From IMG/VR virus record IMGVR_UViG_3300005936_000004: a DNA stretch of 12,526 nucleotides. One strand, 5' to 3'. Below, piece after piece: positions 1 to 12,526 of the stretch. Position 1 is the stretch's first letter. Every line of letters begins with the position of its first letter. The notes beneath the pieces are model-generated. The model saw only the letters and a list, made by a program, of their open reading frames with translations. It was not told the origin of the DNA and searched no databases. Both the position numbers and the translations under genes were made by a program. The stretch is from a virus.

Positions 1-120
1 ATGTTCCTAAAAATATAAAAGGAGAAATACAAGTTAATGTTCCCATAGGAATAGCAAATCCCTCAGCAGTAGATGAAAGTGTAAACATGCAAGTAATAGT
101 AAAAGTCTATCATTTTGACG
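1..120. repeat. Terminal direct repeat, left copy (circularisation overlap or terminal redundancy)
   Basis: Bases 1-120 are identical base for base to 12407-12526 by direct comparison. The repeat lies inside a continuous ORF. Confidence 0.95.
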
Positions 121-1715: not shown

Positions 1716-2956
1716 TGGGAACTGGATTTAGCACAACTAGCAGAAGAAAGAAAAAGAGTAGTGTAACACAGAAATCACCAACTCAAGAATCAACACCAAC
1801 TCCAATTAAGATAAGAAGCGACCAAGCACTTGTTAAGGAAAAGTTTGGAGATACTGTTGAAGGTATTGGTTCACCCGAGATTGAGAGAATAAGAAGAGGA
1901 GAAGCTGGAAGGGTATTTGAGGAACAAGTAAGAGGGGCAGACCCCGGGCAAAGACTTGCAGGAGCAGAGAACTTTCAAGCTAATTTTACCCCTGAACAGC
2001 AACAAAGAAGAGAGAACTTATTATCTGGAGCAGAAGGTTTTGAACAAGAAGCGTTTTTTAACCCACCCCCAAGAGTTGATTTATCACAGAGTGGGTTTGA
2101 ACCTAGACCAGAAGAAGAACAAGGACAAGAACAAGGAGCATTCAGACAAGCATTAAGAAATGTTACAAGGGGAGCGGAGGAATTAACTGGGCAAGCAGCA
2201 GCACAGAGAATTCTAAGTGGGGAAGCAAGTCAAGATGATTTCTTTGCAGTATTACCATTACCTGGAGGAATTACAGGAATAAAGGGGGCAATAGCTGCAA
2301 CAGGTTTAGCAAGATCCGCAAAAGTTGCAGCAAGATCCGCAAAAGTTGCAGGAGCAAAGGGGGCAATAGCTACAACAGGTTTAGCAAGACCCGCAAAAAA
2401 AGCAGCACAAGCAATAAAACCAGGACAGAGTTTAATTAAGAATTTCATAGATGTTGATACTCCAGCATTTAGGAAAGAGTTTGGATTAACAAATGAACAA
2501 ACAAGAGCATTAACAAAACAACTAGGGAATAGGAGAGTTAATGAGGTTGCAGACTTTCTAACCAAAGGAGCAAACCCACAAAAGACAATAGGGAAAAGAA
2601 TAGGTGATACTCTGAAAGCAAATAAAGGAACAATCGGATTAGCTGTGGGAGTTAGTGGAACCATGACATGGTTAGCATCAGATAATATTATTGGTGGAGT
2701 TACAATATTCTCAAATACAATAAGGGATGCAGTAACCTTTGGACAAATGTCTCCAGAGGAAGGATTAGCATCATTAGATTCAGCACAAGAATTTATAAAC
2801 GATGCAAAAACTTTTATCAATGTTAATACTGCCTTGAATCCAGTATTATGGCCTTCAAGAAATCTAGCACTAACAAACACAGAAGTCGCACAATTACAAA
2901 TAGATACAAATAAACTTTTAATGAATCAAAATGGAGGTCAAACAAATGGAAAATGA
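1715..2956 (+). CDS. Hypothetical structural-module protein with basic/disordered N-terminus and in-frame tandem repeats
   Basis: 413 aa. GGGGTGA lies 7 nt upstream of the ATG. The position between portal and scaffold-like genes is where minor head or internal proteins are commonly encoded. It contains the repeat GIKGAIAATGLARSAKVA / ARSAKVA / GAKGAIATTGLARPAKKA and a hydrophobic segment GTIGLAVGVSGTMTWL. Confidence 0.75.
   Translation: MGTGFSTTSRRKKKSSVTQKSPTQESTPTPIKIRSDQALVKEKFGDTVEGIGSPEIERIRRGEAGRVFEEQVRGADPGQRLAGAENFQANFTPEQQQRRENLLSGAEGFEQEAFFNPPPRVDLSQSGFEPRPEEEQGQEQGAFRQALRNVTRGAEELTGQAAAQRILSGEASQDDFFAVLPLPGGITGIKGAIAATGLARSAKVAARSAKVAGAKGAIATTGLARPAKKAAQAIKPGQSLIKNFIDVDTPAFRKEFGLTNEQTRALTKQLGNRRVNEVADFLTKGANPQKTIGKRIGDTLKANKGTIGLAVGVSGTMTWLASDNIIGGVTIFSNTIRDAVTFGQMSPEEGLASLDSAQEFINDAKTFINVNTALNPVLWPSRNLALTNTEVAQLQIDTNKLLMNQNGGQTNGK
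2281..2398 (+). repeat. Nested in-frame tandem repeats (43-nt unit repeated at 75-nt period; perfect 21-nt duplication inside)
   Basis: 2281-2323 and 2356-2398 differ at 2 positions. The unit gcaagatccgcaaaagttgca occurs back to back at 2309-2329 and 2330-2350. Confidence 0.9.
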
Positions 2957-3251
2957 ACAAACGTCGAATGAAGAAGGAGAAAAAACTCAGGGAGAAAGTA
3001 ATTCAACTCAAGAGGGAGAAGGTGAAGGAAAGAAAACGTTATCAAACTTAGACAGAGCAGACTTAAACGTTGAAGCTATGAAGAGAGAGAATGATAGAAA
3101 AGAAGAACTAATCACTCGAGAAGAAAACTTAGCTGCGAGAAAGATGGTCGGTGGAGAAGCAGAAGCTGGAAGCCCATCAAACGAACCTAAGAAAGAAACT
3201 AACTCTGAGTATGCTGAGAGAATCCAATCTGGAGGAGAATATGGAAAATAA
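2946..3251 (+). CDS. Acidic, charged protein; putative scaffolding protein
   Basis: I prefer the ATG at 2946 because GGAGGT (2933-2938) lies 7 nt upstream; the track start is 2931. The 101-aa product is rich in E/K/G/S, has a predicted helical charged core (DRADLNVEAMKRENDRKEELITREENLAARK), and lies upstream of the capsid gene block. Confidence 0.5.
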   Translation: MENEQTSNEEGEKTQGESNSTQEGEGEGKKTLSNLDRADLNVEAMKRENDRKEELITREENLAARKMVGGEAEAGSPSNEPKKETNSEYAERIQSGGEYGK

Positions 3252-3429
3252 AGAAACTAAAATCCCAAAAGATTTAGGGATAAAGATTGGAACACCTTTA
3301 GAAGTTCTATGGACTAATGTTAAAAAGCAAACTGAAAGCTTAATCGAAAAGATTGAGAATGATTTAATAATCAATAAAGAGTTATTGAAAGTTGCTAAAG
3401 ACAAAATTCTACTAGAGCAAAGGAAATAA
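3241..3429 (+). CDS. Hypothetical small helical protein (62 aa)
   Basis: I prefer the ATG at 3241, preceded by GGAGGA at 3231-3236, over the track start 3151, which would overlap the previous gene by about 100 nt. Translation is MENKETKIPKDLGIKIGTPLEVLWTNVKKQTESLIEKIENDLIINKELLKVAKDKILLEQRK. Confidence 0.5.
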   Translation: MENKETKIPKDLGIKIGTPLEVLWTNVKKQTESLIEKIENDLIINKELLKVAKDKILLEQRK

Positions 3430-3435
3430 CAAAGG

Positions 3436-3443
3436 TTTAAATA
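3436..3443 (+). promoter_or_regulatory. Candidate archaeal-type TATA box (TTTAAATA) for the capsid operon
   Basis: TTTAAATA ends 21 nt before the ATG at 3465. No Shine-Dalgarno motif lies in between. The geometry matches the boxes at 7836 and 9669. Confidence 0.5.
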
Positions 3444-3464
3444 TATCAATGCTTAGTGGTAACC

Positions 3465-3869
3465 ATGGCAAACGAAACTACTCTAATGGTTGAGACTGAA
3501 TTACCTATCAATTTTAAATGTGCTGATGGAGCTGGTATTGCAAAAGGTGCTATTCTTAAACTAACTGAATCAATGACTGCTATAATTACAAGCGGACAAA
3601 ATGATAAAGTTGCTGGAATCGCAGCAGAAGAGAAGATTGCAAACGATGGTAAAGTTACTATTAAAGTTTATATGGGTGGAATATTCAAAGGTGTTGCTGG
3701 AGCAGCAGTTAATGTTGGAGCTGCATTAATGACTGATGCAACTGCTAATAAGATTGAAACTGCAACTACTGGAACTGGAGCAAGTGGAATAGGATATGCT
3801 TTAGAAGCGCCTTCTGGAGATGGGCAGACTTTTATATTTAGATTACAAATTGGAGGTTCAGTTTCTTAA
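3465..3869 (+). CDS. DUF2190-like small beta protein (putative head decoration/cement-type protein)
   Basis: 134 aa from the ATG at 3465; the track start 3456 is a GTG. The pattern VAGIAAEEKIANDGKVTIKVYMGGIFKGVAGAAVNVGAAL...IGYALEAPSGDGQTFIFRL matches my recollection of the DUF2190 family. That family is typically encoded immediately upstream of HK97-fold capsid genes. Confidence 0.6.
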   Translation: MANETTLMVETELPINFKCADGAGIAKGAILKLTESMTAIITSGQNDKVAGIAAEEKIANDGKVTIKVYMGGIFKGVAGAAVNVGAALMTDATANKIETATTGTGASGIGYALEAPSGDGQTFIFRLQIGGSVS

Positions 3870-4778
3870 ATGGCAGACACAGCTGGTGAAGCAGATATTA
3901 GAGGAATTGACATCGACAAGTTAGCAAAGGGTTTTGCAGATTTAGAACCTAATGTGATTAAGAGTTTTGTAAGTTCAACTCCAACTAAAGCAAGGGAAAT
4001 GAGATGGTTTCAAAAGACTTCTGGATTTATCGACACAGCTACAACTGACGACACAGCTGGTTCTTTAATCTCAAACACTTCTGGCGGAAGACCTTTTGTT
4101 GCAGAGCAAAGTTGGACTAGAAATACATCTTACGTTAAAGAGTTCTTTGTTGAATCTCCAATGTTGTCTAACTCTGATTTGAAAGATAATGATGTAGACT
4201 TATTGACTACAACTATCAGAGACTTAGTTCGTTCTGTTCAAAGAAAAGTAGGATTGAGAATGTTTGAAATCTTATTTAATTGTTCAGCCGCTACTCCAAC
4301 ACAACCACTAACAGGAACTACAACTGTTCAAACAACAGCTTCTACTGATGGATGGGATATAGTCGCAAATGCAAATCCAATCCTAGATATTCTTAACGGG
4401 CAAATGAAAATAAGACAGCAAGGTTATGATGCTGGTAAAGCAATAATCGCTATGAACTCAATAGAGCATAAGTTCTTAATCAGTTATTTAATAAATACTA
4501 AAGGTTCAAGTATCCCTAGTTTCTCAACTGAGAAATTAAGAAGTGGTGTAGTTATGGAAATATTAGGAAACAGCGTTATAGTAGATGAAATATTTACAAC
4601 TGATTGGGTTTACCAATGGGTGCCAAATAGGGCCGCTACATGGAGAAGTTTTACTCCTCTAACATCTGCTAAGATAGTAGAACCTCTAATCGGCGCAAAG
4701 ATTAGAGTTAAAGAAGAAGGAGAGCTTATTCTACACGACCCAAACGCAGTCCATGTTATTTCTGATACAATAGGATAA
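3870..4778 (+). CDS. Putative major capsid protein (HK97-like fold)
   Basis: 302 aa, starting directly after the DUF2190-like gene stop (TAA then ATG), with GGAGGT at 3852-3857. Size, position downstream of the scaffold-like and decoration-like genes, and a T/S/N-rich beta composition fit small N4-gp56/E-like capsid proteins. The call rests on context plus overall look, not a verified alignment. Confidence 0.7.
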   Translation: MADTAGEADIRGIDIDKLAKGFADLEPNVIKSFVSSTPTKAREMRWFQKTSGFIDTATTDDTAGSLISNTSGGRPFVAEQSWTRNTSYVKEFFVESPMLSNSDLKDNDVDLLTTTIRDLVRSVQRKVGLRMFEILFNCSAATPTQPLTGTTTVQTTASTDGWDIVANANPILDILNGQMKIRQQGYDAGKAIIAMNSIEHKFLISYLINTKGSSIPSFSTEKLRSGVVMEILGNSVIVDEIFTTDWVYQWVPNRAATWRSFTPLTSAKIVEPLIGAKIRVKEEGELILHDPNAVHVISDTIG

Positions 4779-4779
4779 A

Positions 4780-5040
4780 ATGACAAAACAAAATAGAGAA
4801 ACTGCATACAAACATTTTAGAGATTTAGAAACTAATTACACAGCGTTATCACATTTAGATAAAGGTATGACTTCAACTGTTAATTTAAGAGCAAGAGCTA
4901 AAGCTAATGCTGAAGCTTTGTTATTAAGAAATCCAGAACTCGCGCAACTTAACGAAAAAGATAATAAAACTCCAATTACAAAAGAAAATCAATCGCCCAA
5001 AACTGATTCTAAGGAGAAAGTTAAAGATGTCAGTAGATAA
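4780..5040 (+). CDS. Hypothetical protein (86 aa), helical N-half and Lys-rich tail
   Basis: The ORF starts 1 nt after the capsid stop. No motif recognised. Confidence 0.6.
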   Translation: MTKQNRETAYKHFRDLETNYTALSHLDKGMTSTVNLRARAKANAEALLLRNPELAQLNEKDNKTPITKENQSPKTDSKEKVKDVSR

Positions 5041-5209
5041 TTTAAAGAACTTAAGTCAGACTAAGTTTGCAGTTACTAATTTTACAGAAGACTATACTTT
5101 AGATTGTAATGCAGAGGCAGGCGCTACAGCTTTGGCTGATGTTGTAGGAACTTTAATTAGAGACCTAATTGCTAAAGGTATTATCAATCCAGCGGGAACG
5201 GTGGCATAA
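5027..5209 (+). CDS. Hypothetical protein (60 aa)
   Basis: AAGGAG at 5011-5016 lies 10 nt upstream of the ATG. The gene overlaps the previous one by 14 nt. Its TAA (5207-5209) abuts the LamG reading frame. Confidence 0.6.
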   Translation: MSVDNLKNLSQTKFAVTNFTEDYTLDCNAEAGATALADVVGTLIRDLIAKGIINPAGTVA

Positions 5210-6027
5210 TAGCAGCTGGAGATATTAAAACTGTTGTAGCAGATAGGTTTGAACACAAACCCGCAGTTGTTCTTGATGGTGTTGATGATTATGTTTTAGC
5301 TGATGCTCATGCTGTTGCAAGAGTTGCAGCAGGAGATACTGTTGGAACTTATAGCGCATGGGTAATGGTTGATAAATTAGCAGGAGTTGATACAATATTA
5401 AGTGTAGGAGATAATAATTCTACAACAGAAGGTTTAGTTTTTAATATTGATACAAATGGAAAATTAAGAGCCATCTTAGAGTTTGGTGCAGCAGAACAAT
5501 GGGATATCGCAGAAACAGGACAATCAATTAAACCAAATGTATGGACTCATGTTACTTTGGTTCAAAATGGAACACCTCAAATGTATATTAATGGAAAAAA
5601 GATTGTAATAACAGCTTCAACAACCACAGCTTTATCTGCATGGTATAACATTTTAGCTAACTGTGATAAATTTGCAATTGGAGTTGAAGAAACAAATGCA
5701 ACACACATAAACGATTATGGGGGAGCAATAGGAGAAGTAAAATATTGGAATAAAGCTTTAACTGCAGATGAAATATATAATGATTTTCAAGGAAATGTTT
5801 TAAGTGATGATGGAACTTATTTACAATTAGATATTAACATGGATGGAGATGTTACAGATGCAGGACTTGGAGCTGATGATGGAACTCTTGTAGGTAACGC
5901 ATATCTTGACCCAGAATTTGCACAATTAACTTCTAAACTAAGAGTAATGGGCCCAGTAGTTGCTGATAATTTCTCAATAGCAGCAACACAAGGAAGCATA
6001 CATGCAGTAGTTGTTAAAGCAGCGTAA
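5209..6027 (+). CDS. LamG / concanavalin A-like lectin domain protein, apparently starting at a non-ATG codon (ATA at 5209)
   Basis: The track ORF starts at M 5365, but the same frame is open from 5176. It encodes the typical N-terminal LamG strand (PAVVLDGVDDYVLADAHAVARVAAGDTVGTYSAWVMVDKL) before that Met. Downstream motifs WTHVTLVQNGTPQMYINGKK and GAIGEVKYWNKALTADEI are classic Laminin_G_3 features. No ATG, GTG or TTG occurs in frame between 5176 and 5364. Confidence 0.7.
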   Translation: MAAGDIKTVVADRFEHKPAVVLDGVDDYVLADAHAVARVAAGDTVGTYSAWVMVDKLAGVDTILSVGDNNSTTEGLVFNIDTNGKLRAILEFGAAEQWDIAETGQSIKPNVWTHVTLVQNGTPQMYINGKKIVITASTTTALSAWYNILANCDKFAIGVEETNATHINDYGGAIGEVKYWNKALTADEIYNDFQGNVLSDDGTYLQLDINMDGDVTDAGLGADDGTLVGNAYLDPEFAQLTSKLRVMGPVVADNFSIAATQGSIHAVVVKAA

Positions 6028-6036
6028 AATATATTA
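6027..6036 (+). promoter_or_regulatory. Weak candidate TATA-like box (AAATATATTA) upstream of the 6059 ORF
   Basis: This AT-rich box ends 22 nt before the ATG at 6059, the same spacing as the stronger boxes. The sequence is less canonical. Confidence 0.3.
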
Positions 6037-6058
6037 AGTCCTATTGGTAAGTAATTCT

Positions 6059-6223
6059 ATGGCAAATACTATAAGCGAGAAAGAACTAAAAACTAATTGG
6101 CCTAATGAGGAAGGTTTAACTGCAAGAACACAGAAACAAACTGGCAGACAAATGAACCTTCTACCCGAGGGATTGAATGGGATTAAGACTGTTATTCTGG
6201 AAAGAGATAAGGAGTTAATGTAA
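6059..6223 (+). CDS. Small hypothetical protein (54 aa), coupled to the fibre-like gene
   Basis: Translation is MANTISEKELKTNWPNEEGLTARTQKQTGRQMNLLPEGLNGIKTVILERDKELM. Its TAA overlaps the ATG at 6223 (TAATG). It is below the track threshold. Confidence 0.5.
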   Translation: MANTISEKELKTNWPNEEGLTARTQKQTGRQMNLLPEGLNGIKTVILERDKELM

Positions 6224-7668
6224 TGGCAAGACCACCAAGTGCTGATAGTATTATTAGAAATGCTAAACAAGCTGAGCGTAAGATTGAAACTCATGCAAAT
6301 ATTGCGAGTGGGATGATTCTACCAAATAATTCTGGTGACCACACTAAAGGGATTAAGAGAGATGTGCCAATCAATGATTATGATTTAGTTAACAAAAAAT
6401 ATGTTGATGATGAAATAGGCTCAGACCATCCACATCAAGATGTTCAAACAACTGCTTCTCCAACATTTGTGAAGATTGATGGAGGAGAAGGGTATTTTTA
6501 TGATGGAACTAACAGTGTTGGTTTAACAGATAGCACTAACGCAATAACTTCTTACGGAGATGTTGTGTTTAATAATGGAGATATTAAACAACCATCAGAT
6601 ACTTCAAGACATTATTTTGGTTTAAGTGATGATGCTTATATAGAATTTGATGGAAGCAAAATGAATATAATTGCTAACGCAGTTACTGCTACAGATGATA
6701 TGTATTTACAAGCAGATGGTCATTATTTTACTACAACTGCTAATACAGATATTTTCTTATGGTTTGTTGGAACCTCACATACTGGTTTAATGAAATGGGA
6801 TGAAAGTGCAGACACATTTCAATTTAATGATAAGGTTAGATTAGTTAGCGATTTATGGACTCAAGGTAATGCTGGTTTTGGAAGAGCTGTTGCTTCTAAT
6901 AATAGAGTATCTATTCAACATAATACTGCAGTAACTGGTTCAACACAAATAGCTACAAATTCACAAATAGTTTATGGAGCAGGTAGTGCTTCTAATTCTG
7001 CTGTGGCTCATTATGCTTTATTTTCAGATTTTTCAACAAGTGCTACATATTCAGGAAATATGACTAATAACGTTTATGGATATTCAGGTGTTTTAAATCA
7101 TTATGGAAGTGGAGATTTAGCAAAAGCAAAAGGTATGAGTTTTCAAATTAACAACAGAAATACAGGGAATTTAGCAAGTCCTCAAACTATGGTAATAAAA
7201 GCAACTTCAAATTTAGGAGCTGGTTCAGTAACCGGTAGTCCAGTAGGTTTATATTTAGAAGAACAAACATTAGGGACAACTCCATGGCAAGTTTATTCTG
7301 TTGCTGGAAATTGGAATTTAGGAACTGGAAATTTAGAAACTACTGGAAGAATATCAACAGGACAATCAACTTTTTCAACAACAGGACCAACAGATAATGT
7401 GGATGTTTCAGGGATTAATTCTTTACTGATTGACGCTTCAAGTAACACCGTAACCATTGGAGGTTTTACTGGTGGAGTAGCTGGACAAATTTTACATATT
7501 GTATTAATCGATTCAACTAACCATTTAATATTAGAGAATGAAGAAGGAAGCGCGTATCAAGATTTAATTATGCATCAGGGAACTGATGAAGAAATTGACA
7601 AGGGTGGAGTAACTATGGTTTGTGATGGAACAGATTGGTTTGATTGTTCACATGCTAAACACGCATAA
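6223..7668 (+). CDS. Putative tail-fibre / receptor-binding-like protein
   Basis: 481 aa with AAGGAG 8 nt upstream. The N-terminal motif DYDLVNKKYVDDEI resembles the D-x-V-N-K-x-YVD motif common in phage fibre and spike N-termini. The rest is G/N/S/T-rich, repetitive beta-type sequence. It is the last gene of the structural block. Confidence 0.5.
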   Translation: MARPPSADSIIRNAKQAERKIETHANIASGMILPNNSGDHTKGIKRDVPINDYDLVNKKYVDDEIGSDHPHQDVQTTASPTFVKIDGGEGYFYDGTNSVGLTDSTNAITSYGDVVFNNGDIKQPSDTSRHYFGLSDDAYIEFDGSKMNIIANAVTATDDMYLQADGHYFTTTANTDIFLWFVGTSHTGLMKWDESADTFQFNDKVRLVSDLWTQGNAGFGRAVASNNRVSIQHNTAVTGSTQIATNSQIVYGAGSASNSAVAHYALFSDFSTSATYSGNMTNNVYGYSGVLNHYGSGDLAKAKGMSFQINNRNTGNLASPQTMVIKATSNLGAGSVTGSPVGLYLEEQTLGTTPWQVYSVAGNWNLGTGNLETTGRISTGQSTFSTTGPTDNVDVSGINSLLIDASSNTVTIGGFTGGVAGQILHIVLIDSTNHLILENEEGSAYQDLIMHQGTDEEIDKGGVTMVCDGTDWFDCSHAKHA

Positions 7669-7713
7669 ATTTATAAAACTAAAAATAATCCCACCCCCAC
7701 GATTAAAAACGTT

Positions 7714-7733
7714 CTTTCCTTTGGGAAGTTTTT
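7714..7733 (+). terminator. Hairpin plus T5 tract, candidate terminator of the structural operon
   Basis: ctttcc (7714-7719) pairs with gggaag (7723-7728) including one G-U, with a 3-nt loop, and is followed by ttttt (7729-7733). It lies 46 nt after the fibre stop. Confidence 0.45.
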
Positions 7734-7830
7734 ACTCGCCCCCCCTATGTCATATATTACGCATGGGCTAGTGTTCCATAAAAAATGAGAGAGTTACAGC
7801 GTCGGTGTTAAAGGTTATAGTCTATCACCG

Positions 7831-7843
7831 ATATGTTTATATA
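7831..7843 (+). promoter_or_regulatory. Candidate archaeal-type promoter (ATATGTTTATATA)
   Basis: TTTATATA (7836-7843) ends 21 nt before the ATG at 7865. 12 of 13 positions are identical to the element at 9664-9676. There is no SD upstream of 7865. Confidence 0.55.
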
Positions 7844-7858
7844 GTTGTTGTTGTTGTT
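7844..7858. repeat. (GTT)5 microsatellite between TATA box and start codon
   Basis: gttgttgttgttgtt, read directly from the sequence. Confidence 0.9.
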
Positions 7859-7864
7859 AATACT

Positions 7865-7987
7865 ATGAAAACAAAAACAAGTGAAATTAAATGCAAAAAA
7901 TGCAAACACAAATGGATAACTAAAAGCAAACTAGGAATTCTTATTTGTGCTAGTTGTGGGAGCAAAGTTAAAAATGAAAACAATTAA
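7865..7987 (+). CDS. 4-Cys zinc-ribbon protein (40 aa)
   Basis: I prefer the ATG at 7865 over the track start 7805, which would run through the promoter. Translation is MKTKTSEIKCKKCKHKWITKSKLGILICASCGSKVKNENN, with CxxC-x17-CxxC. Confidence 0.6.
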   Translation: MKTKTSEIKCKKCKHKWITKSKLGILICASCGSKVKNENN

Positions 7988-8147
7988 AGAATATTTGGAT
8001 AAAGCAGTATTATCAGAATTAGAAGCTGGATACGTAACAGCATTAAAAGATGTCTTAGCGTTGATTGATGAAATAACACCTGTACATATAAGGATGGGTA
8101 GTAATACCACAGCAATTAGAGAACTAAAAAAGAGGATTGAAGGATGA
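7974..8147 (+). CDS. Hypothetical small helical protein (57 aa)
   Basis: I prefer the ATG at 7974; the track start 7947 is a GTG. The gene overlaps the zinc-ribbon gene by 14 nt. Confidence 0.5.
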   Translation: MKTIKEYLDKAVLSELEAGYVTALKDVLALIDEITPVHIRMGSNTTAIRELKKRIEG

Positions 8148-8181
8148 CATATTTAATTGATGACAATGGAGGTATAACAAA

Positions 8182-8547
8182 ATGATATTAGAATTAAGCG
8201 GAGACTACCTAAAAGCAGAAGATGTTAAAGGTGGCGAAATAGTTACGTTTAGAGATGCGGGTGTAGGAGCAGAACTAACAAGCCCAGAGGGAAAGGTTAA
8301 GAAAGTTATTAACTTTAAAATTGAACTAGGCGATAAAGCTAAGAGCTACACACCAAACAGAACAGCTTTAGAGTTGTTTGTAAAGGCTTGGGGTAAAGAC
8401 ACTAGTGTTTGGATTGGTAAGCAATTCAAGATTAACTTAATTAAGGTTAATGTGTTTGGAACTCTTAAGGATAGCATAGCGCCAGAGATATTGGCTGGTG
8501 AACAAGCACCAATAAACACTCAAACCGTAGAAACTGTTAAGATGTAG
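8182..8547 (+). CDS. Hypothetical protein (121 aa), beta-rich; a possible OB-fold/DNA-binding role is only a guess
   Basis: GGAGGT (8168-8173) lies 8 nt upstream. No motif confidently recognised. Confidence 0.65.
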   Translation: MILELSGDYLKAEDVKGGEIVTFRDAGVGAELTSPEGKVKKVINFKIELGDKAKSYTPNRTALELFVKAWGKDTSVWIGKQFKINLIKVNVFGTLKDSIAPEILAGEQAPINTQTVETVKM

Positions 8548-8754
8548 ATGGATATCACAAAAGAAACAGATATGTTTGAGAGTGGTGCATCTAAGTCAGC
8601 TGTTAAGCTTATCAAGAACTCTAAAGGTATCAACTGGGAGATAAAGGTTGTTGCTGGTGAAGAGCATTTGATTGAGGGTTTAAAGATGATTGCGTTGAAG
8701 ATGCACAGAGAGTTAGAAGAAGACTTATTGGATAGCAATCTAATGCTAAAGTAA
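8548..8754 (+). CDS. Hypothetical protein (68 aa)
   Basis: The ATG directly follows the previous TAG. This is the last gene before the large noncoding region. Confidence 0.55.
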   Translation: MDITKETDMFESGASKSAVKLIKNSKGINWEIKVVAGEEHLIEGLKMIALKMHRELEEDLLDSNLMLK

Positions 8755-8766
8755 ATTATTATTAAG

Positions 8767-8781
8767 CCCTCACTTAGAGGG
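8767..8781 (+). terminator. Short hairpin after the last early gene (possible terminator element)
   Basis: ccctc (8767-8771), loop actta, gaggg (8777-8781), 13 nt after the stop at 8754. No T tract follows, so terminator function is uncertain. Confidence 0.3.
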
Positions 8782-8897
8782 TATATGGGGATGAGGGGTT
8801 TAATCACCTCCTCACCTCTTTACAAAGCTAGGCTAAGCGTAGTGTATTACTCCTGCAACACAGCAGGCTCTGGCGATGGCTTTATTAAGCTGTGATG

Positions 8898-8925
8898 CTT
8901 TAGCTCAGCGTACGCTGAGCTAAAG
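8898..8925. repeat. Perfect 28-bp palindrome
   Basis: ctttagctcagcgt / acgctgagctaaag. The two 14-nt halves are exact reverse complements with no spacer. Confidence 0.95.
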
Positions 8926-9095
8926 AGATTATAGCTTAGTAACTACGTCTGGCTTGGGATTTGCAGGTTTGTAGTGTGTAAAGAATATTAACGCTGTGCT
9001 TATGCTGTGCTGGTGAGTATTAACCTTTTATAGATTCCAATCTACTTAAAGCTACTGCCTCAAACTAGTGAGCAACGCTAGGAAGTTCCTGCGCT

Positions 9096-9123
9096 AATAG
9101 GCTAGTGCAAGCACTAGCTTATT
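9096..9123. repeat. Inverted repeat: GCTAGTGC-AA-GCACTAGC, extended to 13 pairs with one G-T
   Basis: 9101-9108 is the exact reverse complement of 9111-9118. The flanks aatag / cttatt extend the pairing. Confidence 0.9.
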
Positions 9124-9132
9124 CTATTCCAC

Positions 9133-9153
9133 GCAAGCCAGTGTTGGGCTTGC
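9133..9153. repeat. Hairpin, 7-bp perfect stem (gcaagcc / ggcttgc), 7-nt loop
   Basis: Read directly from the sequence. Confidence 0.85.
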
Positions 9154-9163
9154 TTCCCAACCC

Positions 9164-9185
9164 GCTAAGCTGTGCTGTGCTTAGC
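9164..9185. repeat. Hairpin, 7-bp perfect stem (gctaagc / gcttagc), 8-nt loop containing GCTGTGCT repeats
   Basis: Read directly. GCTGTGCT also occurs at 8993-9000 and 9004-9011. TAAGCTGTG occurs at both 8886-8894 and 9166-9174. Confidence 0.85.
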
Positions 9186-9265
9186 TCCCCATAGCCCCAC
9201 CCCTCCATCCCTCCCTCCCTCCTTCCTTCCTATGCGATTATTGGCTTCTCTTCTCTCTTCTTATC
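9184..9265. repeat. Polypyrimidine (+) / polypurine (-) tract with G-quadruplex / i-motif potential
   Basis: C runs of 3-4 occur at 9187-9190, 9195-9198, 9200-9203, 9209-9211, 9213-9215 and 9217-9219, separated by 1-5 nt. The CT-rich stretch then continues to about 9265. Confidence 0.85.
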
Positions 9266-9282
9266 TAGGAGCCCAGCCACAG

Positions 9283-9326
9283 ATTTTATAATTTTAAAGG
9301 ATTAGATTTTAAAATATTATATATAT
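9283..9326. other. AT-rich block (candidate DNA unwinding element)
   Basis: Only 3 of 44 bases are G/C. It contains agatttta twice (9281-9288 and 9304-9311). Confidence 0.5.
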
Positions 9327-9494
9327 GTGTGTTCACCAGCTAGAGCCTAACACCTCACCAGCGAAGTGCTATAAACTAGCATAGCATAACAGACCCCCAA
9401 CTCGCCGAGCGTTCGAGGCGTCAGATGGTTTATGCGTCCCTTGACCAAATTTTGAGAAGGTAGGAATCACCTTTTAACACAAACACACATATAT
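9321..9494. repeat. 13-bp perfect inverted repeat (atatatgtgtgtt / aacacacatatat) bracketing a 148-nt GC-rich core
   Basis: 9321-9333 is the exact reverse complement of 9482-9494. The enclosed 9334-9481 contains local hairpins at 9367-9372/9381-9386 and 9455-9461/9469-9475. Confidence 0.85.
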
Positions 9495-9595
9495 TAATTG
9501 ACCAAATAGCCCCTCCTGTTTCATTATTAATTATTAACAAATTACGTTGTCATTAAGGGTTTGATGTAAATACACTTTTAACTTTATTATTTCAC

Positions 9596-9615
9596 CTATC
9601 TTCATTCGAAGATAG
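9596..9615. repeat. Perfect hairpin/palindrome ctatcttc-attc-gaagatag upstream of the 9664 promoter
   Basis: 8-bp perfect stem read directly. It sits in an AT-rich region about 50 nt upstream of the TATA box, so it may be an operator. Confidence 0.8.
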
Positions 9616-9663
9616 TCTTATTAATATTAAATTTTATTTAAAGAAATATGTCCTGAATTATAC

Positions 9664-9676
9664 ATAAGTTTATATA
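9664..9676 (+). promoter_or_regulatory. Candidate archaeal-type promoter (ATAAGTTTATATA) for the packaging/structural operon
   Basis: TTTATATA (9669-9676) ends 22 nt before the ATG at 9699. There is no SD. It nearly matches the element at 7831-7843. Confidence 0.55.
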
Positions 9677-9698
9677 TGAATGATGTTAGACATATATT

Positions 9699-9947
9699 AT
9701 GGCAGGAAGAAGTAGATATTCATTTGCATTAGAGTTTGTTAAACAACTCAAAGGAGAAGGTTATGATGAAATTGGATTAATGAGTCTTAGAGAGAAGATG
9801 ATGATGCACTTAGGTTCTGATGAAAGAACTCTCCAGAAATACGCTCAACTCATGGTTTCAACTAAATTACTTAAAGACATGGGAATAGGGTGTAGATTTA
9901 AGATTATGATTCCTAAAGAAGCTAAGAAAGGGCAAAAGAGATTATAA
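9699..9947 (+). CDS. Putative winged-helix DNA-binding protein (82 aa)
   Basis: The helix-turn-helix-like segment SDERTLQKYAQLMVSTKLLKD is followed by a wing-like MGIGCRFKI and a basic tail. It is the first gene after the noncoding region and lies upstream of the terminase. It could be a regulator, an origin binder or a small-terminase equivalent. Confidence 0.4.
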   Translation: MAGRSRYSFALEFVKQLKGEGYDEIGLMSLREKMMMHLGSDERTLQKYAQLMVSTKLLKDMGIGCRFKIMIPKEAKKGQKRL

Positions 9948-10159
9948 TGGCTAGAAAACAAGTAACGCAAAGGCACCACATCAGCTATCCAGATGAACCC
10001 GCTGGAGAGATATTAGTTACCTTATACAAGGGAGAACACTGGGCTATTACAGTATTAAATAGGCGTAAGAAGAACATGAGTAAGGGCTTTCTAAGGTGTT
10101 TGCAGGAGTATATTGATTCTCACGCGGAGCAGGCGGTGGATTTAGATGCAGAAGCTTGA
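9947..10159 (+). CDS. Hypothetical protein (70 aa) immediately upstream of the terminase
   Basis: TAATG overlap with the previous gene and a 14-nt overlap with the terminase gene. It contains RHHISY...GEHWAI. Any link to His-Me (HNH-like) nucleases or to a small terminase is unverified speculation. Confidence 0.55.
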   Translation: MARKQVTQRHHISYPDEPAGEILVTLYKGEHWAITVLNRRKKNMSKGFLRCLQEYIDSHAEQAVDLDAEA

Positions 10160-11423
10160 GCTGGATAAGTGGCAAAAGGAAGTATTGGCTACGAGTGGTA
10201 ACAAAGCCATATGTTCTGGGCGACAATCTGGTAAATCTACTATTATCTCGCAGGATGGAGGGGAATACGCTGCTAAGAACAAGAACAAGAGTATTATGAT
10301 TATCGCAGCAACAGAGAGACAAGCATTACTTCTATTCGAGAAGGTTTTAAGCTATTTACATGATAATTACAGAAAGATGATACTCTCTGGAGTAGATAGA
10401 CCAACTAAGCATGAGTTGAAGCTAAACAATGGAACTATAATAAGATGTTTGCCAACAGGTGATAGTGGTTATGGTATCAGAGGTTTCACAATCGATAGAT
10501 TATACGCAGATGAAGCAGCTTTTATCTCAGAAGACGTGTGGGCGGCTGTAACGCCTATGCTGGCAACAACTGGGGGGGATATTGTTTTGTTATCTACACC
10601 ATTTGGAGCAACTGGTTATTTTCACAGATGTTTTCATGATAAGAACTTTACATCTTTCCATGTGAACACGGAAGAAGTTGCTCGAGGAAGAGAAGAACCA
10701 CAAAAGAGCAATATGCTAGAGTTCTTGAAAGATGAGAAAGAGAGAATGACTAAGTTACAATATCAGCAGGAATATTTGGGATTGTTTGTTGGTGGAATTA
10801 TGAGACTCTTTGAACCAGAATTAATAGATAAGGTTTGCACTATCACCCCTGGGGCTGTCATCCATCCAGGAGGTGATAACTTCTTAGGAGCAGACATAGC
10901 CCGCCATGGTGGGGATGAAACGGTTTTAATATCAGCTAAACGAAGAGGAGAGATATTAAGAATGTTTGAACTAGACATCCCAGAAGCTCAAGCATTAACA
11001 AACACAGCAAGACTAATGATTCACAAAGACTTTCTCTATGATTACAAGAAGATGTATATTGATGATGGTGGTATGGGGATTGGGGTTTATGATATTCTTT
11101 TTGAAGATGAACAAACTAAAAGAAAAGTTGTAGGGATTAATAACGCTAAACGTAGCATTGATAGATTGAAGGGAGCTGATAAAGATAGGAAAGTTCCAAT
11201 GATGAAAGAAGACCTTTATATGAATTTAAAGAACTTGATGGAGAAAAGTTTGATTGAATTGTTTGATGATGCAAGATTAAAGCAAAGCTTAAAATCTATG
11301 CAATACGAATACTCAGAAGGTGGGAAGTTGATAATCTATGGGAACTACTCCCATATTGCAGAAGCATTGATTAGAGTTGCGTTTGCGATGAAAGACAAAA
11401 CTTTAAAACTTTGGGTGTGTTAA
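10146..11423 (+). CDS. terL: Terminase large subunit
   Basis: 425 aa. Walker A is CSGRQSGKST. Walker B with the catalytic Glu is RLYADEAAF. The coupling motif is VLLSTPFG. The C-terminal RNase H-like nuclease signatures are LGADIARHGGDETVL and MYIDDGGMGIGVYD. GGTGGA lies 5 nt upstream of the ATG. Confidence 0.93.
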   Translation: MQKLELDKWQKEVLATSGNKAICSGRQSGKSTIISQDGGEYAAKNKNKSIMIIAATERQALLLFEKVLSYLHDNYRKMILSGVDRPTKHELKLNNGTIIRCLPTGDSGYGIRGFTIDRLYADEAAFISEDVWAAVTPMLATTGGDIVLLSTPFGATGYFHRCFHDKNFTSFHVNTEEVARGREEPQKSNMLEFLKDEKERMTKLQYQQEYLGLFVGGIMRLFEPELIDKVCTITPGAVIHPGGDNFLGADIARHGGDETVLISAKRRGEILRMFELDIPEAQALTNTARLMIHKDFLYDYKKMYIDDGGMGIGVYDILFEDEQTKRKVVGINNAKRSIDRLKGADKDRKVPMMKEDLYMNLKNLMEKSLIELFDDARLKQSLKSMQYEYSEGGKLIIYGNYSHIAEALIRVAFAMKDKTLKLWVC

Positions 11424-11430
11424 GTAAAAC

Positions 11431-11790
11431 ATGGCATTTACAGGAATAACCGCAACAGAAGCAGAGATTGACCAGAAGACTGGAGCTAATGTAAGCGCTG
11501 CATTTACTGATGTTATGAAAACAGCAGCCCTTCTTCAAGCGGAGAGTGTTGTTAATGGATTCGCGAGATATAATTTCTCTGATAATTGGGGAACCTTAAA
11601 CGTTGATGTGAAATATTTAATCACAAACATAACTGCTTCTATGGTTGCGATTGAAGGGATAGGATATGACTTAGATACTTATGGAAGAACTGTTGCAGAA
11701 GATAAAATAACAATTCTAACAAACGACGTTCAAAGAAACTTATCAATATTGAAAGATAAAAAAGTACAGGACTTTGTAAATGGCGCATGA
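11431..11790 (+). CDS. Hypothetical protein (119 aa); possible head-tail adaptor/connector-type protein
   Basis: Helical; the opening (ITATEAEIDQKTG...MKTAALLQAESVVNGF) is reminiscent of gp6-like connector proteins. This is a weak, memory-based call. Confidence 0.3.
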   Translation: MAFTGITATEAEIDQKTGANVSAAFTDVMKTAALLQAESVVNGFARYNFSDNWGTLNVDVKYLITNITASMVAIEGIGYDLDTYGRTVAEDKITILTNDVQRNLSILKDKKVQDFVNGA

Positions 11791-12172
11791 TTTTAAACGA
11801 TTCCCTGAATTAACAAACAGGCAGATGAACTTATACTATTTTGAAAGCCCACACAAACAGATAACTCAGGACTTTGTAGCTAAGGTTGTGAAAGTAACTG
11901 ATGGAGACACAATAAGAGTTAAGTGGGAAGATAGAGACTTTGACTTTCCTATTCGTTTTATAGATATTGCAGCCCCAGAACTTGATGAGATTGGTGGAGC
12001 TAAAAGCCAGAGTTGGTTGGAGAGTGAGATTTTAGGGGAAGAAGTAACTGTTGTTATGGATAGAAAAAACAGAGTGGAGAAGTGGGGAAGACTTTTAGGA
12101 AGAATATTATTTAGAGGGATTGATATTAATCAAGCAAGCATGAACGGAGGTTTTTCGATAAGATTTGAATAA
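11780..12172 (+). CDS. Staphylococcal nuclease (SNase/thermonuclease) fold nuclease
   Basis: VTDGDTIRV, IRFIDIAAPE, EEVTVVMDRKNRVEKWGRLLGRI and GIDINQASMNGGFS match the SNase family pattern (DGDT...R-x-x-gIDaPE...D-x-yGR-x-L...G-x-diN). It has overlapping starts and stops with both neighbours. Confidence 0.85.
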   Translation: MAHDFKRFPELTNRQMNLYYFESPHKQITQDFVAKVVKVTDGDTIRVKWEDRDFDFPIRFIDIAAPELDEIGGAKSQSWLESEILGEEVTVVMDRKNRVEKWGRLLGRILFRGIDINQASMNGGFSIRFE

Positions 12173-12526
12173 TGACATTACCAGGAGTTTTTAATCAGAG
12201 GGAACAGTTTGTTAATTATGATTGGGTTGATATTGCAAATGGAACGGGTTATGTTGAATATTATGGAGCGTTATGTAATGGTGGATTAGAAACAACAACA
12301 CCGAGAAGCACAGTTAGTTCAGAGTTCATAAAGATAGTAAATCCAATAGGAGGAATAGCAAACGCATTAACTCAACTATTTAATTTAGATTTTGATATAG
12401 AATTTAATGTTCCTAAAAATATAAAAGGAGAAATACAAGTTAATGTTCCCATAGGAATAGCAAATCCCTCAGCAGTAGATGAAAGTGTAAACATGCAAGT
12501 AATAGTAAAAGTCTATCATTTTGACG
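12172..12526 (+). CDS. Hypothetical virion-module protein, 5' part of a 234-aa ORF that crosses the genome junction
   Basis: The ATG at 12172 overlaps the preceding TAA (TAATG). My translation (MTLPGVFNQREQFVNYDWVDIANGTGYVEYYGALCNGG...) has no stop to the window end. The ORF is missing from the track only because it runs off the end. Confidence 0.7.
   Translation, partial: MTLPGVFNQREQFVNYDWVDIANGTGYVEYYGALCNGGLETTTPRSTVSSEFIKIVNPIGGIANALTQLFNLDFDIEFNVPKNIKGEIQVNVPIGIANPSAVDESVNMQVIVKVYHFD
12407..12526. repeat. Terminal direct repeat, right copy
   Basis: Exact 120-nt copy of 1-120. This implies a unit genome length of 12,406 bp. Confidence 0.95.

Follow-up and report, generated by a model that had tools for sequence, protein, structure and literature searches.

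In archaea, a transcription unit is classically opened by a TFB-recognition element (BRE) and a TATA box near −26, its first gene is leaderless, and the genes inside it are led by a Shine-Dalgarno (SD) sequence or coupled to the gene before them. For archaeal leaderless first genes, GeneMarkS-2 placed the promoter box about 22–26 nt from the start codon and found ribosome binding sites (RBS) before internal genes, whereas the box of bacterial leaderless genes lies about 10 nt from the start codon (PMC6028130). The M. jannaschii promoter consists of a TATA box (TWTATATA), a 9-nt BRE with a conserved position −34, a promoter proximal element (PPE) and an initiator (Inr); the 3′ edge of its TATA box lies 23 ± 2 nt from the transcription start in 94% of promoters, and nearly all mRNAs have leaders of at least 9–10 nt with an RBS, while in Sulfolobus operons the RBS is absent from the first gene and present on later genes (PMC2699501). 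Here we compare these systems with the promoters of IMG/VR virus record IMGVR_UViG_3300005936_000004, a stretch of 12,526 nt which we analysed whole and refer to as the window. It is very probably the complete genome, circular or terminally redundant and 12.4 kb long, of an uncultivated archaeal virus that uses archaeal promoters and leaderless first genes.

A perfect 120-nt overlap joins the two ends of the window (1–120 = 12407–12526), which makes it a unit of 12,406 bp that is either circular or terminally redundant. The + strand carries all of its credible genes, and the genes and promoters described below lie on that strand. In the scheme that we propose, these genes would form about five transcription units, each opened by an archaeal core promoter comprised, in order, of an A-rich BRE, an 8-bp TATA box (TTTAWATA, weaker in two of the promoters), an A/T-rich element with a T at −10 and a pyrimidine-purine initiator. 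Host TBP, TFB and RNA polymerase would start on or next to the A of the ATG, and each unit would open with a gene translated from a leaderless mRNA. Translation of the downstream genes of the polycistronic mRNA would start mostly through Shine-Dalgarno pairing (GGAGGT, AGGAG, GGTGA); for the rest it would rely on termination-reinitiation where a stop codon overlaps or abuts the next start codon (TAATG, TAAAATG, TAGATG).

Promoter boxes and gene starts in the window

The word TTTAWATA occurs only three times on the + strand of the 12,406-bp unit, at 3436, 7836 and 9669, and each copy lies 21–22 nt before the ATG of a gene. In 200 dinucleotide shuffles the arrangement TTTAWATA-N21-22-ATG was found 0.13 ± 0.34 times, and none of the shuffles reached the observed number of three. 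The four best window matches of a position weight matrix (PWM) trained on relatives only are likewise all positioned 21–22 nt before the ATG of a gene. The top score in the window, 19.7 bits, belongs to the capsid-unit promoter (3427–3443), in which an A-rich, BRE-like ATAACAAAGG is followed by the box TTTAAATA at 3436–3443, 21 nt from the ATG at 3465. Early promoter 1 (7831–7843; 15.5 bits) consists of ATATG and the box TTTATATA at 7836–7843, 21 nt from the ATG at 7865, and early/packaging promoter 2 (9664–9676; 13.7 bits) of ATAAG and the box TTTATATA at 9669–9676, 22 nt from the ATG at 9699. The initial annotation, made from the letters of the window, had listed these three boxes with their distances of 21, 21 and 22 nt, and a check of the coordinates in the sequence bore this out. 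It had also described the two early promoters as nearly the same, and ATAAGTTTATATA (9664–9676) and ATATGTTTATATA (7831–7843) are indeed identical at 12 of 13 positions.

There is also a weaker, TATA-like box before the ATG at 6059. The initial annotation was right that a box is present and wrong in placing it at 6027–6036: because the homologues of the gene at 6059 carry their box exactly 21 nt upstream, we set the window box as TATATTAA at 6030–6037, 21 nt from the ATG. The A-rich stretch upstream of this box takes in the stop codon of the preceding LamG gene. A fifth, degenerate box at 11402–11409, inside the gene for the large terminase subunit (TerL), was absent from the earlier list and is described with the family below.

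Gene starts were scored as having an SD when at least 4 nt matched AGGAGGTGA 3–16 nt upstream of the start codon. Gaps of 35, 31, 196 and 944 nt precede the genes at 3465, 6059, 7865 and 9699, respectively, none of which has an SD, in agreement with the earlier reading of these four promoter-led genes. That reading had further assigned SDs to the genes inside blocks. We found one before thirteen internal genes, with GGAGGT upstream of 2946, 3870 and 8182, AGGAG upstream of 1569, 5027 and 6223, and GGTGA upstream of 1715 as examples. Four more internal genes (472, 8548, 9947 and 12172) lack an SD and instead overlap or abut the preceding stop codon, in the forms TAAAATG, TAGATG and TAATG.

A fixed box distance across the virus family

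Database searches returned 1,858 relatives by TerL and 1,723 by the major capsid protein (MCP), and 94 loci were fetched. The box-distance scan covered 73 non-redundant loci and the window (445 kb) and required that the ATG open an open reading frame (ORF) of at least 40 aa. The coding strand contained 212 copies of TTTAWATA and the opposite strand 109. Of the coding-strand copies, 93 end exactly 21 nt before such an ATG and another 15 exactly 22 nt before it (108/212); for the opposite strand these numbers are 2 and 0 out of 109 (Fisher P 2e-22). Exactly 21 nt is the distance in 86% of the spaced boxes; the length of the spacer is fixed and its sequence is variable. The same scan of a low-GC Clostridioides phage revealed no peak at 21–22 nt (0 of 42 boxes).

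These counts bear on the simplest alternative, that TATA-like words lie near gene starts by chance in the A/T-rich intergenic DNA of a genome of 36% GC. The AT-rich composition of the window and the weakness of its fourth and fifth boxes are what such an explanation can draw on. It is rejected already by the three spaced boxes against 0.13 in the shuffles, the family contrast of 108 against 2 by strand, the lack of a corresponding peak in the low-GC bacterial phage, the combination of fixed spacer length with variable spacer sequence and the synonymous constraint that one box imposes in coding DNA (below); we regard it as having next to no probability.

Counted from the A of the ATG as +1, the family position matrix has A with frequencies of 0.96 at −34, 0.83 at −33 and 0.99 at −32. 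Position −10 is T in 0.75 of sites, −1 is a pyrimidine (C or T) in 0.85, and +1 is A. The upstream element, A-S-A-W-A, was found separately in the promoters of the cement gene, of the 119-aa gene at 11431 (g11431) and of 33 early or unidentified genes, most of which have no homologue in the window. Since this A-rich element is present in three separate classes, it does not represent one inherited sequence. In the cement homologues, GAAAnnTTTAWATA lies 21–22 nt before the ATG in 24 of 24 cases. Note, the box itself varies between genes: TTTAAATA is the dominant variant in the family, and TTTATATA is found in 11 of 30 promoters of small, non-conserved (early-type) genes, in 4 of 24 of cement genes and in none of 43 of g11431, a distribution that may mark two promoter classes.

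We then compared TATA boxes and SDs gene by gene, using non-redundant homologues with gene starts anchored by homology and scoring the SD as a 4-mer. The cement homologues have a TATA box in 19/19 and an SD in 3/19, and the g11431 homologues in 32/38 and 3/38, respectively; in five of six homologues of the gene at 6059 the box is TTTATTAA, TTTATAAA or TTTATATA, at a distance of exactly 21 nt from the ATG. The reverse was found for MCP (TATA 4/25, SD 18/25), the staphylococcal nuclease-like (SNase) gene (0/36 and 20/36) and the fibre gene (0/4 and 4/4). Portal homologues mostly have neither, and their TAAAATG junction is conserved. TATA and SD are therefore largely mutually exclusive across the genes of the family. 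At the portal start (458–474) and its homologous sites, where neither signal is present, the conserved GATATATAAAATG junction is made up of the stop codon that ends the upstream gene and a single further base, which suggests a coupling of termination and reinitiation.

The fifth promoter of the window is embedded in the 3′ end of the TerL gene (11393–11409). In it, AAAGACAAAAC precedes the degenerate box TTTAAAAC at 11402–11409, which is the fourth-best family-PWM match in the window and lies 21 nt from the ATG at 11431. The TerL genes of about 50 relatives have AAAGACAAAAsTTTAAATA in their last codons, and there, too, the distance to the start codon of the following gene is 21 nt. The promoter spans roughly the last ten TerL codons, which encode K-D-K-S/T-L-N-I, and codon choice there is strongly biased. 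In particular, Leu420 is encoded by TTA in 66 of 70 genes, compared to 37% TTA over 19 other conserved leucine columns (P 2e-24), and Lys416 and Lys418 are AAA in 96–99%. The predicted TerL-embedded promoter is a constraint on synonymous sites at the DNA level and provides a clean case of a regulatory signal that restricts them. In the relatives g11431 is predicted to be leaderless; in the window, read-through from TerL, with GGTG 13 nt upstream of the start codon, may also serve it.

A box inside TerL would be part of the TerL mRNA, and this, together with the GGTG upstream of window g11431, lends something to the proposal that the box is not the basal promoter but an RNA-level signal, such as an AU-rich translation enhancer, in longer read-through transcripts. 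Alternatively, it could be the operator of a virus-encoded regulator, as the virus encodes a small zinc-ribbon protein and possibly DNA-binding proteins. An RNA enhancer would not require a constant distance of 21–22 nt or an SD-less start. A regulator specific to the virus is unlikely, as the box stands before genes that are not homologous to one another, in diverged genomes that do not conserve their early proteins. Moreover, the box with the A-rich stretch upstream of it, a T at −10 and a pyrimidine-purine (Y-R) step at −1/+1 jointly reproduce the host-type core promoter. We consider either form of this proposal very improbable.

Core promoter architecture and the domain of the host

The features of an archaeal core promoter found here are the TATA spacing, the A-rich BRE with its −34 position, the A/T-rich element near −10 and the Y-R initiator. 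The fixed spacing of 21–22 nt would put the transcription start at the A of the ATG and predicts that the first genes are leaderless. Leaders are disfavoured because larger spacings are nearly absent, and a start further downstream than the A would destroy the codon. From these features we infer that TBP and TFB bind the boxes, that transcription starts exactly at the ATG and initiation is leaderless, and that the host is an archaeon. An archaeal host had already been put forward in the initial annotation; the family-wide spacing, the BRE, the initiator and the TATA/SD split support it, and the host itself is deduced from the promoter architecture in combination with the affinity of TerL. When TerL was compared with 50,697 deposited records of phages and viruses, the haloarchaeal virus HGTV-1 came out first (E 1e-40; 30% identity at 97% coverage), and the best match to a bacterial phage is partial (E 1e-23). 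MCP and portal gave no tblastn match in the same records.

A bacterial host, for example from the candidate phyla radiation (CPR)/Patescibacteria or the Planctomycetota, would mean that TTTAWATA acts as a −10-like or UP-like element followed by an SD-less leader of 14–15 nt. A sigma-70 −10 hexamer has A as its second and T as its sixth base and is spaced 16–18 nt from the −35 hexamer; in leaderless genes it lies about 7–10 nt from the ATG. Within the family box, TAAATA and TATATA end in A at the invariant T, and TTAAAT and TTATAT have a T at position 2, where the A is invariant. Sigma-70-like sites are not enriched (46 versus 39.3 ± 5.8) and the boxes have no −35 partner. A distance of 21–22 nt to the ATG also differs from the approximately 10 nt of bacterial leaderless genes (PMC6028130). 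The closest deposited match of TerL in a haloarchaeal virus and the low-GC Clostridioides phage without a peak at 21–22 nt likewise argue against bacteria, and we judge a bacterial host to be improbable.

What a bacterial host has in its favour comes partly from metagenome-assembled genomes (MAGs), since family contigs were binned in Planctomycetia and Saccharibacteria MAGs. Other family contigs and proteins (the labelled set being L008-L011 and L107; P0005, P0022 and P0052) bear the labels Heimdallarchaeaceae, Nanoarchaeota or 'uncultured archaeon'. The Saccharibacteria-labelled contig L010 has the same TerL-embedded box, 22 nt before the ATG, so that its label looks like a product of binning, and the Heimdall-labelled contig is viral throughout. 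Look-ups of clusters yielded no further names. The labels were rejected as host evidence, as they are mutually inconsistent and the Heimdall-labelled contig is wholly viral; they look like binning artefacts and could mislead host prediction.

The fibre was examined as a second source of host information. Its C-terminal module of about 110 aa (7330–7668, residues ~370–481) is of the PF25692 type (P0247, P0248, P0267 and P0286) and shares 53% identity with the C-terminal end of a 745-aa protein, which is encoded on a contig of 46.5 kb from a Pacearchaeota-labelled MAG. It is also present in five tandem copies in 670-aa tail-spike proteins, one of them on a P22-like contig of 30.8 kb, and was found on another contig that encodes peptidoglycan hydrolases of the M23 and CHAP types. 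These are features of bacterial phages and count towards a bacterial host. The module is mobile, as its five repeats in other proteins illustrate, and the contigs that share it lack the TATA grammar; we therefore discarded the fibre as a guide to host lineage.

Several points weigh against an archaeal assignment. No direct link to a host was found, with neither an integration site nor a tRNA in evidence, and the MAG labels and the bacterial-phage contexts of the fibre module conflict with it or with one another. A spacing of 21 nt falls at the lower limit of the 23 ± 2 nt reported for M. jannaschii, and the window promoters at 6030 and 11402 are weak and rest on homology. SIRV2, used as a positive control of the distance scan, was uninformative, having another TATA consensus and an extremely AT-rich genome. 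In addition, SD motifs do not tell archaea from bacteria and suit a bacterial host equally well. If the archaeal reading is true, promoter grammar alone would assign the domain of the host. Its value would be diagnostic, giving the host domain from sequence alone for an abundant family with conflicting MAG labels, and the signal (108 versus 2 by strand) is strong enough for reuse as a screen.

Genome content and comparison with known systems

The initial annotation had recognized a terminase-portal-HK97 type module, and its presence is confirmed. The module is of the Duplodnaviria/Caudoviricetes type (capsid, portal and terminase): TerL (10146–11423) matches PF03237 (E 2.7e-10) and phrog_2 (E 1.9e-42), and the portal (472–1572) matches PF04860 (E 2.3e-13) and phrog_12. 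MCP (3870–4778, 302 aa) gave a weak capsid match in PHROG, and its HK97 fold was identified with AlphaFold2 and Foldseek. The AlphaFold2 model, built from an alignment of 44 homologues, has a pLDDT (predicted local distance difference test) of 74.3 and a pTM (predicted template modelling score) of 0.72, and the top Foldseek matches in the PDB were the phage D3 virion, the HK97 prohead and encapsulins (E ~1e-12, probability 1.00).

The morphogenesis unit is headed by g11431 (11431–11790) and continues through the SNase-like nuclease (11780–12172, by domain match), a 234-aa gene that runs from 12172 across the overlap to 470, the portal and the further morphogenesis genes 1569–1715, 1715–2956, 2946–3251 and 3241–3429. 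One of 30 g11431 homologues weakly matches a head-tail adaptor PHROG (E 0.002); a profile search of the g11431 product against PDB sequences gave no match, and its single-sequence structure model reached a pLDDT of only 55. The gene at 1715–2956, which follows the portal and encodes a 413-aa protein with no assigned function, contains imperfect repeats of up to 62 nt at 2271–2407 with a 21-nt sub-repeat; they encode recurring GAIAATGLAR(S/P)AK segments of the protein.

The capsid unit begins with a cement- or decoration-like protein of 134 aa (3465–3869; PF09956, Phage_cement_2, E 1.5e-9), followed by MCP, whose SD GGAGGT is at 3852–3857 in the gene-start table. The LamG-domain protein, recognized by a domain match, ends at 6027. 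Its gene (5209–6027, 272 aa) starts with ATG in the near-identical genomes L097, L098 and L100 and has ATA in the window and in L099; this is a start-codon polymorphism (5207–5211) inside a population that is more than 99% identical, and the ORF finder lists 5365–6027 only. The fibre unit is headed by a 54-aa gene (6059–6223) that lacks an SD, follows the 31-nt gap and is predicted to be leaderless, and the fibre gene itself (6223–7668) has the SD AGGAG at 6210–6214. A terminator-like hairpin followed by a T5 run lies 3′ of the fibre gene (7714–7733) and is a candidate for the end of the late transcription unit. Across the family, T5 runs were found upstream of 19 of 59 promoters compared to a background of 9.6%, an approximately threefold enrichment that is consistent with oligo-T termination and confounded by AT-rich spacers.

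The first early gene (7865–7987), predicted to be leaderless, encodes a 40-aa zinc ribbon (CxxC...CxxC). In Pfam it comes closest to the zinc ribbons of TFIIB (E 1.3e-4) and A2L, in matches none of which passes the threshold; speculatively, the protein could act on the host transcription machinery. Early genes 2–4 follow at 7974–8147 (SD GGAG), 8182–8547 (SD GGAGGT at 8168–8173) and 8548–8754 (the TAG is directly followed by the ATG), and none of the four early genes (7865–8754) is conserved in relatives. The packaging unit (9699–11423) contains an 82-aa gene predicted to be leaderless (9699–9947), a 70-aa gene (9947–10159, with a TAATG overlap) and TerL.

Upstream of early promoter 2 lies an ORF-free region of 944 nt (8755–9698) in which GC is locally raised and GC skew is negative. 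It harbors a perfect 28-bp palindrome (8898–8925), a hairpin (9096–9123), a C/T-rich tract (~9187–9232) and a perfect 13-nt inverted repeat, ATATATGTGTGTT/AACACACATATAT, at 9321–9333 and 9482–9494. An ORF-free stretch of 0.56–1.4 kb is also present in several relatives, which have CA/TG-rich tracts beside their early promoters. The region is a candidate replication origin or packaging region.

A tRNA scan of the window found none, and an Rfam scan of its non-coding regions gave no credible family. Profile searches of the window proteins recognized no replication gene and no protein-primed polymerase, and Pfam and PHROG searches no tail tube, sheath or tape-measure gene. The only tail-related proteins recognized were the LamG-domain protein and the fibre-like protein, which has a C-terminus of the Phage_depo_C type.

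The longest contigs of the TerL and MCP relatives cluster at 12–13 kb. Family genomes measure 12.2–12.9 kb, and other complete units have 12,430, 12,311 and 12,395 bp. Metagenomes of marine and deep-sea sediments (the LAZR01 and SDBS-SDBV01 sets) are the source of many relatives, and others are from saline lakes and groundwater. The 77-kb contig Ga0222658_1000054 (L083/L085) is a head-to-tail concatemer with a period of 12,198 nt and copies that are 98–100% identical; it was considered as an integrated copy, which is excluded since it is a concatemer of a ~12.2-kb genome.

The promoter grammar itself is of a known archaeal kind, and the virus family appears to be undescribed; a literature search, which was not exhaustive, found no description of an archaeal HK97 virus family of about 12 kb. 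We tentatively suggest, as a possibility of somewhat less than even weight, that this is a large and globally distributed family of the smallest known archaeal viruses with an HK97 capsid-portal-terminase module, that, with no replication genes and no recognizable tail tube, it would depend wholly on its host for replication and transcription or possibly on a helper virus, and that its hosts may be uncultivated DPANN or Asgard archaea. At 12.4 kb the genome is near the lower limit of known tailed viruses and well below described archaeal ones, and the promoter grammar predicts precise, testable boundaries for the transcription units of this minimal capsid-portal-terminase virus.

Among cellular genomes, the closest likeness is to the archaeal 'group D' of GeneMarkS-2 (Halobacterium, Haloferax and Sulfolobus), which has the same spacing, SD-less first genes and SDs before internal genes. 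Here the genome is that of an uncultivated 12.4-kb virus, the spacing is tighter, and some stop-start overlaps replace the SD. The methanogen 'box A' (TTTATATA / TWTATATA in M. jannaschii, PMC2699501) shares the TATA box, the BRE with A at −34, the A/T-rich proximal element, the Y-R initiator and the spacing. M. jannaschii mRNAs have leaders, whereas the geometry of the virus promoters predicts none, and the expression style of the host would thus not be Methanococcus-like. HGTV-1, an archaeal member of the Caudoviricetes, has the HK97-fold MCP, portal and TerL in common with this virus; it is a 144-kb myovirus, approximately 12 times larger, whereas no tail tube, sheath or tape-measure gene was recognized here. 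The verdandiviruses of Asgard archaea resemble the family in their origin from marine sediment, in a cement gene directly before the MCP gene, in the lack of replication genes and in arrays of small non-conserved genes; as described, their complete genomes measure about 20 kb, compared to 12.2–12.9 kb here, and encode siphovirus tail proteins. Finally, the minimum quoted for tailed phages in isolation is 11.6 kb (phage Astrid of Salmonella and satellite P4), just below the size of this genome; these and the phi29-like phages are of a similar size class, but they have bacterial hosts and bacterial promoters, unlike this virus.

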